Shown here one piece after another: positions 39,456 through 50,758 of a stretch of 64,000 bases of DNA. The translations under genes and the position numbers were made by a program. Source of the stretch: Escherichia coli (lineage in GTDB: Bacteria; Pseudomonadota; Gammaproteobacteria; Enterobacterales; Enterobacteriaceae); NCBI RefSeq assembly GCF_041886205.1, contig NZ_CP169029.1. The stretch is one strand, 5' to 3'. Position 1 is the stretch's first letter. Every line of letters begins with the position of its first letter. The notes below the pieces were generated by a model. That model did no database searches, had not been told where the DNA came from, and saw nothing but the letters and a program-made list of their open reading frames with translations.

Positions 39456-39543
39456 GGAAGTGTGGCCGAGCGGTTGAAGGCACCGGTCTTGAAAACCGGC
39501 GACCCGAAAGGGTTCCAGAGTTCGAATCTCTGCGCTTCCGCCA
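39456..39543 (+). tRNA. serT: tRNA-Ser (anticodon UGA)
   Basis: GGAAGTGTGGCCGAGCGGTTGAAGGCACCGGTCTTGAAAACCGG...GCGCTTCCGCCA; long variable arm, encoded CCA. Confidence 0.95.
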
Positions 39544-40499: not shown

Positions 40500-40829
40500 A
40501 TGCTGATCTTCGAAGGTAAAGAGATAGAAACGGATACCGAAGGCTATCTCAAAGAAAGCAGCCAGTGGAGTGAACCGCTGGCAGTGGTGATTGCAAAGAA
40601 CGAAGGGATTTCGCTGTCGCCAGAACACTGGGAAGTGGTGCGTTTTGTGCGTGATTTCTATCTGGAATTTAATACGTCTCCGGCGATTCGTATGCTGGTA
40701 AAAGCGATGGCGAATAAATTTGGTGAAGAAAAAGGTAACAGCCGCTATTTATACCGACTGTTCCCGAAAGGCCCGGCAAAGCAAGCCACCAAAATTGCTG
40801 GCCTGCCAAAACCGGTAAAATGTATTTAA
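40500..40829 (+). CDS. tusE: TusE, sulfurtransferase for tRNA 2-thiouridine synthesis
   Basis: ORF 40443..40829; start at [11 protein letters not shown]-terminal PKPVKCI. Confidence 0.85.
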
Positions 40830-46819: not shown

Positions 46820-47266
46820 ATGCGTACCGTTTTGAACATTCTGAACTTTGTGCTTGGCGGATTTGCCACCACTCTGGGCTGGCTGTTGGCGACTCTGGTC
46901 AGTATTGTGCTGATTTTTACCTTACCGCTGACACGATCCTGCTGGGAGATCACTAAACTGTCTCTGGTACCTTATGGCAATGAAGCTATTCATGTCGATG
47001 AACTGAACCCGGCTGGCAAAAATGTACTGCTGAATACTGGCGGTACGGTATTGAATATTTTCTGGCTGATTTTCTTTGGCTGGTGGTTATGCCTGATGCA
47101 CATTGCAACGGGCATCGCACAATGTATTTCCATCATTGGCATTCCTGTCGGTATTGCGAACTTTAAAATTGCAGCTATTGCACTATGGCCGGTCGGTCGT
47201 CGCGTGGTATCGGTAGAAACAGCGCAAGCTGCGCGTGAAGCCAATGCACGTCGTCGTTTTGAATAA
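46820..47266 (+). CDS. yccF: YccF, DUF307 inner-membrane protein
   Basis: 148 aa, hydrophobic. Confidence 0.85.
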   Translation: MRTVLNILNFVLGGFATTLGWLLATLVSIVLIFTLPLTRSCWEITKLSLVPYGNEAIHVDELNPAGKNVLLNTGGTVLNIFWLIFFGWWLCLMHIATGIAQCISIIGIPVGIANFKIAAIALWPVGRRVVSVETAQAAREANARRRFE

Positions 47267-47275
47267 TCCACTAAT

Positions 47276-49438
47276 ATGGCCTTTATGCTAAGTCCTTTGC
47301 TCAAACGCTATACCTGGAACAGCGCCTGGCTGTATTACGCGCGTATTTTTATTGCGCTTTGTGGAACCACAGCGTTTCCGTGGTGGCTGGGTGATGTAAA
47401 ACTGACGATTCCGCTAACGCTGGGGATGGTGGCAGCGGCGCTGACCGATCTCGATGACCGACTGGCGGGACGTTTGCGTAACCTCATCATTACGCTGTTC
47501 TGCTTTTTTATCGCCTCGGCCTCAGTAGAATTGCTGTTTCCCTGGCCCTGGCTATTTGCGATTGGCTTAACGCTCTCTACCAGCGGCTTCATTTTGCTCG
47601 GCGGTCTGGGTCAACGCTATGCAACAATTGCCTTCGGTGCATTGCTGATCGCCATTTACACTATGTTGGGAACATCACTTTATGAGCACTGGTATCAGCA
47701 GCCGATGTATCTGCTGGCCGGTGCCGTCTGGTACAACGTCCTGACACTTATTGGTCATCTGCTGTTCCCGGTCCGCCCGCTGCAGGACAACCTGGCGCGT
47801 TGCTATGAACAACTGGCGCGTTATCTTGAGCTCAAGTCGCGCATGTTTGATCCTGATATTGAAGATGAAAGCCAGGCACCGCTGTACGATTTGGCTCTCG
47901 CCAACGGACAGCTGATGGCGACATTGAATCAGACGAAACTCTCGCTGCTGACCCGCTTACGTGGCGATCGTGGTCAACGGGGAACGCGTCGCACGCTGCA
48001 TTATTACTTTGTCGCGCAGGATATTCACGAGCGTGCCAGCTCTTCTCATATTCAGTATCAAACATTGCGTGAACATTTTCGCCACAGCGACGTGCTGTTC
48101 CGTTTTCAGCGGCTGATGTCGATGCAGGGCCAGGCGTGCCAGCAACTGTCACGCTGTATTTTGCTGCGTCAGCCTTATCAACATGATCCGCATTTTGAGC
48201 GCGCTTTTACGCATATTGATGCTGCCCTGGAGCGGATGCGCGATAACGGCGCGCCTGCCGATTTACTCAAAACACTAGGATTTTTGCTGAACAATTTACG
48301 CGCCATTGATGCCCAACTGGCAACAATTGAATCAGAACAGGCCCAGGCACTACCCCATAATAATGACGAAAATGAGCTCGCTGATGACAGCCCGCACGGA
48401 TTGAGTGATATCTGGCTGCGTCTTAGCCGTCACTTCACGCCGGAGTCCGCCCTCTTCCGTCATGCGGTTAGAATGTCGCTGGTGTTGTGTTTCGGCTACG
48501 CCATCATTCAGATAACCGGAATGCATCACGGGTATTGGATCTTGCTGACAAGTTTGTTTGTCTGCCAGCCAAACTATAACGCCACGCGCCACCGCCTGAA
48601 GTTAAGGATTATTGGTACGCTGGTAGGTATCGCCATTGGCATTCCTGTGCTGTGGTTTGTACCGTCACTGGAAGGGCAGCTGGTGCTACTGGTTATTACC
48701 GGCGTGCTCTTTTTTGCCTTCCGTAACGTGCAATATGCCCATGCAACGATGTTCATCACACTTTTGGTGCTACTGTGTTTTAACTTGCTGGGTGAAGGTT
48801 TTGAAGTAGCGTTACCTCGCGTAATCGATACGCTGATTGGTTGTGCCATTGCGTGGGCGGCAGTGAGCTACATCTGGCCTGACTGGCGGTTTCGCAATCT
48901 GCCGCGCATGCTCGAACGCGCCACCGAGGCCAACTGTCGGTATCTCGATGCCATACTGGAGCAATACCATCAGGGGCGTGATAACCGTCTGGCGTATCGT
49001 ATTGCCCGCCGCGATGCACACAACCGTGATGCTGAGCTGGCGTCGGTGGTATCAAACATGTCCAGCGAACCGAACGTTACCCCGCAAATTCGAGAGGCCG
49101 CGTTTCGGTTACTGTGCCTTAACCATACGTTTACCAGCTATATCTCAGCCCTCGGTGCTCACCGGGAGCAGTTAACTAATCCTGAAATTCTGGCGTTTCT
49201 TGATGACGCAGTTTGCTATGTTGATGACGCGTTACATCATCAACCTGCTGATGAAAAACGCGTCAATCAGGCATTAGCTGGCCTGAAACAGCGGATGCAG
49301 CAACTTGAACCACGGGCAGACAGCAAAGAACCTCTGGTCGTACAACAAGTTGGGTTATTGATTGCATTACTGCCTGAGATTGGTCGTCTGCAACGCCAGA
49401 TTACTCAAGTTCCGCAGGAAACTCCTGTTTCGGCGTAA
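47276..49438 (+). CDS. yccS: YccS, FUSC-family inner-membrane protein
   Basis: 720 aa ORF; true start may be the Met three codons downstream. Confidence 0.85.
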   Translation: MAFMLSPLLKRYTWNSAWLYYARIFIALCGTTAFPWWLGDVKLTIPLTLGMVAAALTDLDDRLAGRLRNLIITLFCFFIASASVELLFPWPWLFAIGLTLSTSGFILLGGLGQRYATIAFGALLIAIYTMLGTSLYEHWYQQPMYLLAGAVWYNVLTLIGHLLFPVRPLQDNLARCYEQLARYLELKSRMFDPDIEDESQAPLYDLALANGQLMATLNQTKLSLLTRLRGDRGQRGTRRTLHYYFVAQDIHERASSSHIQYQTLREHFRHSDVLFRFQRLMSMQGQACQQLSRCILLRQPYQHDPHFERAFTHIDAALERMRDNGAPADLLKTLGFLLNNLRAIDAQLATIESEQAQALPHNNDENELADDSPHGLSDIWLRLSRHFTPESALFRHAVRMSLVLCFGYAIIQITGMHHGYWILLTSLFVCQPNYNATRHRLKLRIIGTLVGIAIGIPVLWFVPSLEGQLVLLVITGVLFFAFRNVQYAHATMFITLLVLLCFNLLGEGFEVALPRVIDTLIGCAIAWAAVSYIWPDWRFRNLPRMLERATEANCRYLDAILEQYHQGRDNRLAYRIARRDAHNRDAELASVVSNMSSEPNVTPQIREAAFRLLCLNHTFTSYISALGAHREQLTNPEILAFLDDAVCYVDDALHHQPADEKRVNQALAGLKQRMQQLEPRADSKEPLVVQQVGLLIALLPEIGRLQRQITQVPQETPVSA

Positions 49439-50030
49439 GAGAGTCAGCCCATTCTGCTAGCTCCTGGCGGCGTGCCACCGGGAGCGCAGCTTCATGAATC
49501 CCGATAATGGCACCTTCAAGCATAAACAGAATCTTTTCTGTCACCAGACTGTTTTGCTGCCGCAGTCGCAACCAACACATTTTTGCCCCAAGTATACGTA
49601 ACGCCCGTACATCCTTAATCCCCACCTCCCCGAGAATCGCTTCCAGATGAAAAGACATATTGGGCAAATCTTTCAGTCTTTCCCGGGTATTGCGCGTGCT
49701 TTTCTCTTTCAGCGCTGCATCGAGAGAATATTTCGACAGACGCACCAGCTTCAGTTGATTTCGCCATAGACTTTCATCAACCCGATAGTAATTGAGGGTA
49801 ACGGATCGGCCACACTTTTTATATGTCAGCCAGACAGGCGGATGTTTTACACAGTACTGTGCACTTTGCTCACAAGCCCGAAGATACAACTCACCATCAG
49901 AAACCATCGCAAACACCGTGTCGTCAACGGTCAGGCTGTAACTACCAAACAATGATCGGTATTCAATTGTGCCCAACGTTGCCAGGTATTCTTGTGATTT
50001 ATAGATCCGCTTATAGGAGAGGTTTTTCAT
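49401..50030 (-). CDS. sxy: Sxy (TfoX), competence regulator
   Basis: 209 aa; 3' end overlaps yccS 3' end by 38 nt. Confidence 0.9.
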   Translation of the reverse strand: MKNLSYKRIYKSQEYLATLGTIEYRSLFGSYSLTVDDTVFAMVSDGELYLRACEQSAQYCVKHPPVWLTYKKCGRSVTLNYYRVDESLWRNQLKLVRLSKYSLDAALKEKSTRNTRERLKDLPNMSFHLEAILGEVGIKDVRALRILGAKMCWLRLRQQNSLVTEKILFMLEGAIIGIHEAALPVARRQELAEWADSLTPKQEFPAELE

Positions 50031-50206
50031 AAAATTCCTTTTAAAATCATAATATAAAAGAATGATTCACATTAACGGATCCGTTAAATACGAAAATAGG
50101 CAACTTCTTCTTTAGGGGCAAGATTAATTTATGTTTTCCCGTCACCAACGACAAAATTTGCGAGGCTCTTTCCGAAAATAGGGTTGATCTTTGTCGTCAC
50201 TGGATG

Positions 50207-50226
50207 TACTGTACATCCATACAGTA
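50207..50226. promoter_or_regulatory. LexA operator (SOS box) of sulA
   Basis: TACTGTACATCCATACAGTA, perfect CTGT-N8-ACAG, 23 nt upstream of sulA start. Confidence 0.9.
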
Positions 50227-50248
50227 ACTCACAGGGGCTGGATTGATT

Positions 50249-50758
50249 ATGTACACTTCAGGCTATGCACATCGTTCTTCGTCGTTCTCATCCGCAGCAA
50301 GTAAAATTGCGCGTGTCTCTACGGAAAACACTACAGCCGGGCTTATCAGTGAAGTTGTCTATCGCGAAGATCAGCCCATGATGACGCAACTTCTACTGTT
50401 GCCATTGTTACAGCAACTCGGTCAGCAATCGCGCTGGCAACTCTGGTTAACACCGCAACAAAAACTGAGTCGGGAATGGGTTCAGGCATCTGGGCTACCC
50501 TTAACGAAAGTAATGCAGATTAGCCAGCTCTCCCCTTGCCACACCGTGGAGTCAATGGTTCGCGCTTTACGCACGGGCAATTACAGTGTGGTGATCGGTT
50601 GGTTGGCAGATGATTTGACTGAAGAAGAGCATGCTGAACTTGTTGATGCGGCAAATGAAGGTAACGCTATGGGGTTTATTATGCGTCCGGTAAGCGCATC
50701 CTCTCACGCCACGAGACAACTTTCCGGGCTAAAAATTCACTCTAATTTGTATCATTAA
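50249..50758 (+). CDS. sulA: SulA, SOS cell-division inhibitor
   Basis: ORF 50243..50758; start at [10 protein letters not shown]. Confidence 0.95.

Follow-up and report, generated by a model that had tools for sequence, protein, structure and literature searches.

The 38 bp shared by the convergent genes sxy and yccS of Escherichia coli are the passive outcome of two genes packed tail to tail with no spacer, and such an overlap is not above chance expectation; a GC-rich stem-loop that lies a short way beyond it, within the coding sequence of sxy, is under selection with a strand bias towards the yccS sense. We regard it as probable, at roughly 0.6, that this element (49460-49485) protects the 3′ end of a yccF-yccS (yccFS) mRNA terminated by Rho and has been displaced into the neighbouring gene, a reading in which we infer the Rho dependence, the trimming and the 3′ end itself.

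The window analysed here is the whole 64,000-nucleotide stretch of E. coli DNA. In it, yccF (46820..47266, plus strand; open reading frame and RefSeq annotation) heads the operon named yccF-yccS in PMC4161252 and is followed on the same strand by yccS (47276..49438), which encodes a FUSC-like putative transporter of 720 residues. The gene sxy (tfoX; 49401..50030, minus strand) encodes a protein of 209 residues, both coding sequences being supported by open reading frame, RefSeq annotation and domain content. The yccS sequence closes with TAA at 49436-49438 and the TAA of sxy is the reverse complement of 49401-49403, placing both stop codons within the shared 38 bp and making this a true convergent overlap of coding sequences. 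Both genes are genuine, as a domain search identifies TfoX_N and TfoX_C in Sxy and FUSC-like domains in YccS; homologues were found in 80 species and RefSeq annotates both genes. The RefSeq/PGAP annotation places the gene ends identically in a strain with 100% identity across the 1201 bases queried (48900-50100), as it does in a strain of 91% identity, and in K-12 MG1655 the coordinates of sxy (b0959; 1021138-1021767) and yccS (b0960; 1021730-1023883) again give an overlap of 38 bp. Of 5,426 complete E. coli genomes, 5,425 carry the locus. The overlap at 49401-49438 reported in a preliminary description of this DNA is therefore exact in reading frames, sequence and RefSeq annotation alike; the reference annotation already contains it, and two transcriptome catalogues name the pair.

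Alignment of the two protein families accounts for the overlap without recourse to a selected device. YccS is conserved as far as approximately …LLPEIGRLQRQI709, its final 11 residues (TQVPQETPVSA) forming a variable tail whose sequence differs from genus to genus. The TfoX_C domain of Sxy ends at W194, no column is conserved beyond L198 and residues 199-209 form a second variable tail, the length of the protein ranging from 201 to 209 residues. The last conserved codons, those of I709 in YccS and L198 in Sxy, are only 34 nt apart, and the shared DNA, which codes on its two strands for the unconserved C-terminal tails, encodes two dispensable extensions because each frame runs on through this gap to the first stop codon that it meets. 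In a chance model in which these 34 nt were exchanged for random sequence, the reading frames overlapped in about 90% of trials and did so by at least 38 bp in about 70%. In 76 of the 80 Enterobacteriaceae species the coding sequences share between 4 and 80 bp, with no conservation of the tail sequence, and of the 12 junctions between convergent genes in the 64-kb window, 3 have coding ends that overlap. Conservation or structure of the 38 bp as such was considered and rejected, as both the tails and the length of the overlap vary between and within genera. The pair thus provides a clean example of convergent coding overlap as the default of tight spacing.

The stem-loop GCUCCUGGCGGCGUGCCACCGGGAGC (49460..49485, plus strand) falls within the sxy codons for A182-L191 and spans 22-47 nt past the yccS stop codon. 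Short-window folding of the yccS-sense strand gives a stem of 10-11 bp with a 4-nt loop at −22 kcal/mol. In a sliding profile the element is the unique local outlier, its mean being −19.7 kcal/mol where the gene as a whole averages −4.8 ± 2.35, and it is visible in a short window only, folds of the whole region being uninformative (z-scores of −1.6 and −0.6). An exact-seed search for inverted repeats returned no match at this site because a U.G position interrupts the seed, and Rfam 15 gave no covariance-model match in 49200-49800 at E ≤ 1, nor did any family reach the gathering score in this section of the window. Scanning 47000-50400 for consensus promoters and terminators revealed no promoter-like site near the sxy/yccS overlap and no terminator-like site 3′ of either stop codon.

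In all 80 species the 100 nt that follow the yccS stop codon contain a hairpin at least as strong as −14 kcal/mol, with a median of −22.0 as compared with −10.8 for control segments. Natural variation in gene spacing is informative here. In two species the genes are separated by intergenic spacers of 249 bp and 2286 bp; in both the embedded hairpin has been lost, L183 is now encoded by CTG and a new strong hairpin has appeared just 3′ of the yccS stop codon. Chimaeribacter retains the peptide motif ALP..R.EL but encodes it by other codons that form no hairpin, and a hairpin is located instead in the 44-bp gap between the genes. At two more distant Enterobacterales loci (L083 and L090) no strong hairpin follows yccS. 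On the opposite strand, the sequence past the sxy stop codon has a hairpin strength equal to that of controls across the 80 species. The best candidate there for a 3′ hairpin of sxy, at yccS codons 645-657 (mean −10.6 kcal/mol), was rejected, its fold being explained by Asp-Asp/His-His codons and its synonymous variation being normal.

The codons that build the arms of the stem-loop are frozen. L183 is encoded by CTC in 74 of 80 sequences, P184 by CCG in 79 of 80 and R188 by CGC in 73 of 81; at residue 189 glutamine is almost always CAG (48/49) and arginine invariably CGG (31/31), and E190 is GAG in 71 of 78. Synonymous variation reaches saturation at the neighbouring codons L191, G177 and A181. 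Counting related species as independent, as do all of the statistics given for the stem-loop, the arm codons make up five of the nine columns with the least synonymous entropy out of 86 that are conserved (Mann-Whitney p = 6e-6). Changes across the stem are also correlated: the choice of CTN or TTR at L191 covaries with that of GCG or GCA at A182, both synonymous (Fisher p = 2e-4), and CGT at R188 is found together with ANN at residue 185 (p = 2e-5). The stem is paired in 90.9% of cells, compared with 38-52% when the partners are slid, and double changes occur at five pairs; on shuffling, the observed value was reached in none of 500 trials for four of the five measures of covariation.

These data bear directly on whether the inverted repeat might simply follow from the conserved peptide AALPxxRRQEL together with codon bias, or be a DNA palindrome bound by a protein, in either case lacking a function as RNA. 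In favour of such an origin, the arms do coincide with conserved residues and are highly conserved in themselves. However, the arm codons are fixed on non-preferred choices (CTC for leucine, CGG for arginine) beside saturated neighbours, synonymous positions covary with each other, the stem admits G.U pairs, and does so with a strand bias, Chimaeribacter encodes the same motif with no hairpin, and the structure decays wherever a spacer exists. We consider this explanation most improbable.

The strand in which the structure is maintained is suggested by its wobble pairs. G.U-type cells number 81 on the yccS-sense strand and 24 on the sxy-sense strand, and in 71 of 81 sequences it is the yccS sense that folds more stably, a bias across species that hangs largely on one position, the choice between glutamine and arginine at residue 189. 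E. coli itself departs slightly from this, with −23.0 kcal/mol for the sxy-sense fold and −22.0 kcal/mol for the yccS-sense fold. The sxy-sense fold is indeed very stable in general (mean −17.3 kcal/mol across species), with 83.7% of cells still paired, and past its stop codon sxy lacks a hairpin belonging to it; the stem-loop might therefore act in the sxy mRNA, alone or besides its role for yccFS, by slowing ribosomes as they approach the stop codon or as a trimming point that yields non-stop messages. Against this stand the strand bias in wobble pairs and stability and the position of the structure in a translated region, where ribosomes would unfold it. Moreover, it has decayed in the sxy genes of the two species whose yccS has a spacer hairpin of its own, so that sxy does not appear to need it. 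A function in the sxy message is accordingly judged unlikely.

A GC-rich stem of 10-11 bp with a 4-nt loop near the yccS stop codon resembles an intrinsic, Rho-independent terminator, possibly a bidirectional one common to yccS and sxy, and overlapping terminators are predicted for 146 of the 165 convergent excludons of the ExcludonFinder catalogue (PMC12288877). The U-rich tract of 7-8 nt expected directly after the stem is nevertheless absent, the next eight bases being GCAGCUUC as dictated by sxy codons 179-182, and the consensus terminator scan is blank at the stem-loop. On the sxy strand the element precedes the stop codon and so cannot serve as the sxy terminator. Intrinsic termination at this site is thus very unlikely in either direction. 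A predictor that depends on a U-tail, such as TransTermHP, would probably miss the yccS stem-loop.

The stable stem-loop soon after the stop codon and the missing U-rich tail recall the transcript ends described by Dar & Sorek 2018 (PMC6061677), which also show an excess of C over G downstream. A candidate counterpart of that excess is a C-rich, G-poor stretch 3′ of the stem-loop at 49520..49680 in the yccS sense, a candidate Rho loading (rut) region. Its GC skew in E. coli is −0.28 to −0.49 in windows across 49520-49679; the excess is mild outside E. coli, with a mean C over G of +0.19 to +0.27 for sxy codon windows 133-181 over 81 sequences, and a second C-rich tract occurs at codons 25-61. 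The yccFS stem-loop differs from the protective stem-loops of PMC6061677 in being located in the coding sequence of a convergent gene, whose codons it constrains family-wide, and in that its 3′ end, Rho dependence and trimming are deduced from sequence and fold.

On the preferred reading of a protective yccFS 3′ stem-loop, the lack of intergenic room would have pushed the 3′-end signal of the yccF-yccS mRNA into sxy. RNA polymerase would continue past yccS into sxy in the antisense direction, Rho would end transcription diffusely downstream of the stem-loop, and 3′-5′ exonucleases would then trim the RNA back as far as the stem-loop, which would shield the mature message. The mature yccFS mRNA would in this way be complementary to about the last 85 nt or more of the sxy mRNA, and the structure of an RNA from one gene would constrain the codon choice of another, together with the choice between glutamine and arginine at residue 189. 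Since sxy has no comparable hairpin past its own stop codon, its transcript presumably reads on into yccS, until Rho would halt it. Among published 3′-end data, the supplements of PMC7815308 and PMC6131387 contain no mention of yccS, sxy or tfoX. The stem-loop would illustrate how the 3′-end structure of a neighbour's RNA can freeze synonymous codons, and bias the choice at residue 189, throughout a bacterial family. It would also be of practical concern when the 3′ ends of sxy or yccS are recoded, deleted or tagged, as the yccFS mRNA may be destabilized by 'silent' mutations within sxy codons 182-191 or by a clean deletion of sxy.

The preliminary description had proposed that read-through from yccS would be antisense to the sxy 3′ region and could feed into a known tight post-transcriptional control of Sxy. 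The geometry of this proposal stands, and the complementarity is obligatory: with the yccS stop codon inside sxy, any full-length yccS mRNA must carry sequence complementary to the 3′ end of sxy, and a translatable yccS mRNA cannot end upstream of the overlap, an outcome that had been thought to count against the proposal. The emphasis on the 38 bp does not survive the variation of the overlap between 4 and 80 bp, and given the conserved yccS-sense stem-loop the antisense stretch looks like a normal yccFS 3′ UTR of about 85 nt or more rather than accidental read-through. The reference to tight control applies only loosely, as the controls of Sxy described for E. coli are CRP-dependent autoregulation and proteolysis (Jaskolska & Gerdes 2015, as cited in PMC11951105), and control by mRNA structure is known for the 5′ region of sxy in H. 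influenzae (PMC2248739). A search on both names found no literature linking yccS with tfoX; 'yccS' alone returned unrelated acronyms.

Transcriptome studies do place the two units against each other. Strand-specific RNA-seq shows the yccF-yccS and sxy operons to converge (PMC4161252, legend to Fig. 2), and Table 1 of PMC12288877 lists sxy-yccS among 165 convergent excludons, each detected by ExcludonFinder in 50% or more of 58 data sets from MG1655. The overlap could be a regulatory device, a functional 'excludon' in which yccS transcription or mRNA antisense to the sxy 3′ end helps to keep Sxy low through polymerase collision or cleavage of the duplex by RNase III. The obligatory complementarity, the retention of the tail-to-tail order in Enterobacteriaceae, Erwiniaceae and Yersiniaceae, and an embedded stem-loop that would guarantee about 85 nt of antisense in a stable yccFS mRNA are all consistent with this. 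Yet the shared bases are unconstrained and expected by chance at such spacing, two species tolerate a spacer of 249 bp or 2.3 kb, overlapping coding sequences satisfy trivially the overlap of transcript boundaries by which an excludon is recognized, and the E. coli controls cited above are of other kinds; a regulatory function for the overlap is therefore doubtful. More doubtful still is an extended form, in which the yccFS mRNA would be a permanent partner of some 85 nt for the sxy 3′ end and sxy would be trimmed to the same stem-loop, with duplex cleavage or non-stop mRNAs acting as a family-conserved, cis-encoded brake. Were such a brake to exist, it would help to explain why Sxy is so hard to induce in E. 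coli, and any antisense effect on Sxy would be relevant to a long-standing question, namely why this organism does not induce its competence regulon.

The arrangement may be compared with other overlapping pairs. It shares with convergent excludons (PMC12288877; the concept is reviewed in PMC7154746) the overlap of neighbouring convergent transcription units; the hallmark of a functional excludon is mutually exclusive expression together with RNase III processing, and the likeness of sxy/yccS to these is one of transcript overlap. In contrast to excludons with overlapping terminators, the yccS signal is found within the coding sequence of the neighbour rather than in a 3′ UTR, and has no U-tail. 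The dnaQ-rnh and ilvA-ilvY pairs, to judge from the titles of references 19 and 20 in PMC4161252, are classic convergent E. coli genes with overlapping transcripts that terminate within the neighbour. Within the window itself, torR/torT and tusE/yccX are likewise encoded on opposite strands, share from a few to a few dozen 3′ coding bases and have no intergenic terminator, and both appear with sxy/yccS in the published excludon list of PMC12288877. No essential difference separates these two pairs from sxy/yccS, whose 38 bp lie at the longer end for the window.

The convergent genes yccS (47276-49438, + strand) and sxy (50030 down to 49401, - strand) both end in a TAA stop read from the sequence and have exactly 38 bp of coding sequence in common (49401-49438). 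The preliminary description had claimed a convergent overlap of this length, and it is borne out by the open reading frames, by both stops and by the RefSeq ends, which are identical in the annotation of E. coli XJ5.2 and of a 91%-identical strain and the same in K-12 MG1655 (sxy b0959, 1021138-1021767; yccS b0960, 1021730-1023883). The window is chromosomal E. coli DNA; its region 48900-50100 is 100% identical to XJ5.2 and is matched in 5,425 of 5,426 complete E. coli genomes. Both genes are genuine, since Sxy carries TfoX_N and TfoX_C domains and YccS carries FUSC-like domains, and the pair belongs to the class of convergent overlapping coding sequences. The overlap is already known, ordinary and catalogued: a figure of Conway et al. 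(2014; PMC4161252) draws the sxy/yccS region itself, in a study reporting 3'-end overlap in 276 of 370 convergent operons (mean 286 nt), and ExcludonFinder (PMC12288877) names sxy-yccS as one of 165 convergent 'excludons', all of which were detected in 50% or more of 58 MG1655 RNA-seq data sets. This listing rests on transcript overlap, which is trivially satisfied when coding sequences overlap, and the functional hallmarks of excludons go beyond it; neither publication describes an effect on Sxy.

Comparison of 80 Enterobacteriaceae species representatives showed a yccS/sxy coding overlap in 76, with lengths of 38 bp in E. coli, 41 in E. albertii, 14-23 in Salmonella, 11-47 in Citrobacter, 44 in Enterobacter, 80 in Trabulsiella, 7 in Kosakonia and 4 in Buttiauxella. 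In the other four the genes abut (one), are separated by an 11-bp gap (one) or lie 249 bp and 2286 bp apart across longer spacers (two). The gene order helD-yccF-yccS-sxy-sulA-ompA-matP reaches Tatumella and Rosenbergiella (26-bp overlap) and Chimaeribacter (44-bp gap). The 2286-bp insertion, in Superficieibacter electus (comparison locus L047, 4173-6081), holds two open reading frames on the yccS strand, one for a 425-aa membrane permease-like protein and one of 200 aa; a tail-to-tail junction of this kind can therefore be interrupted. Among 14 aligned Sxy proteins (201-209 aa) no column is conserved beyond L198, the Pfam TfoX_C domain ending at W194, and YccS conservation stops at ...RLQRQ(I/V)709, after which the sequences differ; the shared 38 bp thus encode two unconserved protein tails. 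The conserved cores of the two genes lie 34 nt apart, and random spacers of local base composition gave overlapping frames in 90% of trials and an overlap as long as 38 bp or longer in 70% (92% and 75% when the real spacer was shuffled). Three of the 12 convergent junctions in the window have overlapping ends, namely yccS/sxy (38 bp), torR/torT (28 bp, 13541-13568) and tusE/yccX (4 bp, 40826-40829). The yccS/sxy overlap is thus no greater than chance; tight packing suffices and selection is superfluous as its cause. The published excludon list likewise includes torR/torT and tusE/yccX, and in the XJ5.2 annotation torT is a pseudogene, interrupted by an internal stop.

Alignment of the junction revealed an inverted repeat starting 22 nt past the yccS stop, which in E. 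coli is the stem-loop GCUCCUGGCGGCGUGCCACCGGGAGC at 49460-49485, within sxy codons A182-L191 (AALPVARRQEL), with folding energies of -22.0 kcal/mol (+ strand) and -23.0 kcal/mol (- strand). Across 81 sxy sequences synonymous sites are frozen in the hairpin arms (L183 CTC 74/80; P184 CCG 79/80; R188 CGC 73/81; Q189 CAG 48/49, or CGG 31/31 where the residue is R189; E190 GAG 71/78), while in the codons adjoining the arms synonymous variation is saturated, as at L191 (CTT 30, CTG 28, CTA 9, TTG 6, TTA 5, CTC 3). Counting related species as independent, so that the p-values are indicative only, the arm codons supply five of the nine lowest synonymous entropies among 86 conserved columns (Mann-Whitney p = 6e-6), L191 CTN/TTR covaries with A182 GCG/GCA in several genera, both changes being synonymous (Fisher p = 2e-4), and R188 CGT is associated with ANN codons at position 185 (p = 2e-5). 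Stem cells in the alignment are paired in 90.9% of cases vs 38-52% with partners slid, double changes occur at five stem pairs, and none of 500 shuffles matched the observed covariation score, percentage paired, double-change cells or further pair types. On these alignments the stem changes are compensatory and the stem-loop is under selection.

Several observations bear on which transcript the structure serves. The yccS-sense strand has 81 G.U-type cells and the sxy-sense strand 24, and the yccS-sense fold is the stabler in 71 of 81 sequences (means -19.6 vs -17.3 kcal/mol). A sliding fold profile gives a mean of -19.7 kcal/mol for the hairpin windows and -4.8 +/- 2.35 for the remainder of sxy, and the last 260 yccS codons hold no comparable structure. 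On the yccS-sense strand, all 80 species have a hairpin of -14 kcal/mol or lower in the 100 nt past the yccS stop (median -22.0 kcal/mol vs -10.8 for control segments, which reach -14 in 10 of 80), while past the sxy stop the sxy-sense strand shows no excess over control (-12.8 vs -13.7). In the two spacer species the embedded hairpin has decayed to -9.5 and -5.9 kcal/mol, with L183 now CTG in both and Q189 CAA in one, and a different strong hairpin stands 5-13 nt past the yccS stop, in one of them separated from sxy by 2.2 kb and two genes; substitutes are also present in two more species whose canonical hairpin has decayed. Chimaeribacter encodes ALP..R.EL by other codons without a hairpin, so the peptide motif does not force the structure, and places a -24 kcal/mol hairpin in its 44-bp gap. 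Taken together, the strand bias, the uniqueness of the hairpin, its presence in 80/80 species, the spacer species and Chimaeribacter point to a structure required by the yccFS transcript rather than by sxy. In Tatumella sp. UBA2305 (comparison locus L084, ~3978-4011) a different, perfect 13-bp hairpin of -26.4 kcal/mol lies within the sxy coding sequence, ~7 codons before the Enterobacteriaceae position as sxy is read, which suggests that an embedded stem-loop evolved independently in Erwiniaceae.

The stem-loop does not qualify as an intrinsic terminator, because the bases past the stem, GCAGCUUC, are set by sxy codons and form no U-tract, and a terminator scan returned no site at the stem-loop; no Rfam family matches it. 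The + strand past the stem is C-rich and G-poor (GC skew -0.28 to -0.49 in windows over 49520-49679), and corresponding windows across species have a mean C-over-G of +0.19 to +0.27. Dar and Sorek (PMC6061677) described Rho-dependent E. coli transcripts with precise steady-state 3' ends right past stable stem-loops that have no U-rich tail, a C-over-G bias downstream, diffuse termination further on, and trimming by PNPase/RNase II to the protective stem. The yccFS locus resembles this architecture, its stem-loop matching two features of that class as read from sequence, stability and the missing U-tract; the C-over-G bias is strong in E. coli, mild across species and not unique within sxy. On this resemblance we propose that 49460-49485 protects the 3' end of yccFS mRNA as a stem-loop, and infer with it the 3' end, the Rho dependence and the trimming. 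As no hairpin follows the sxy stop, sxy transcripts presumably run on, antisense to yccS, until stopped by Rho. Both the embedded stem-loop and the codon footprint it leaves on sxy are, as far as our literature search shows, undescribed, and add one more case to two kinds already known, overlapping terminators and Rho-type 3' stem-loops.

It had also been suggested that read-through from yccS would be antisense to the sxy 3' region and could affect Sxy control. The geometry and the antisense relationship stand; the read-through does not if the proposed 3' UTR holds, in which case a stable yccFS mRNA would be complementary to the last ~85 nt of sxy mRNA (49401-49485) as its normal 3' UTR. Interference could run either way, since sxy transcripts presumably enter yccS antisense. 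A regulatory role for the overlap is hypothetical. Its bases show no constraint, and spacers are tolerated in two species. Controls of E. coli Sxy named in the title of Jaskolska and Gerdes (2015; via PMC11951105) are CRP-dependent autoregulation and proteolysis, and control by mRNA structure is described for the 5' region of H. influenzae sxy (PMC2248739, PMC3739930). Whether obligatory antisense pairing affects Sxy is a testable lead, and 'silent' changes or deletions made in the 3' part of sxy may damage the yccFS mRNA end.

At the other end of sxy, codons 5-14 (49989-50018) have nearly frozen synonymous sites across 81 Enterobacteriaceae sequences (E14 GAA 73/73, Y10 TAT 99%, Y6 TAT 89%), which suggests a nucleotide-level constraint at the mRNA start that could reflect translation initiation, or RNA structure as in H. 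influenzae sxy. A second frozen cluster, at yccS codons ~528-544 (48857-48905; D535 GAC 99%, I532 ATC 96%), coincides with a 7-bp inverted repeat, GCGGCAG...CTGCCGC, with 35 nt spacing; on the sxy-sense strand the cluster lies ~500 nt past the sxy stop. Elsewhere in the window, Rfam has only two matches, a cspA-type thermoregulator over cspG and its 5' UTR (19103-19525, - strand, 159 bits) and a tRNA (39456-39540, + strand), annotated as tRNA-Ser in XJ5.2. Between cspH and gfcA lies a 1256-bp insertion (20328-21583) that is not in XJ5.2, so the window stems from a different strain for all their 100% identity around sxy; the insertion holds an IS3-family transposase open reading frame (20356-21222, - strand).
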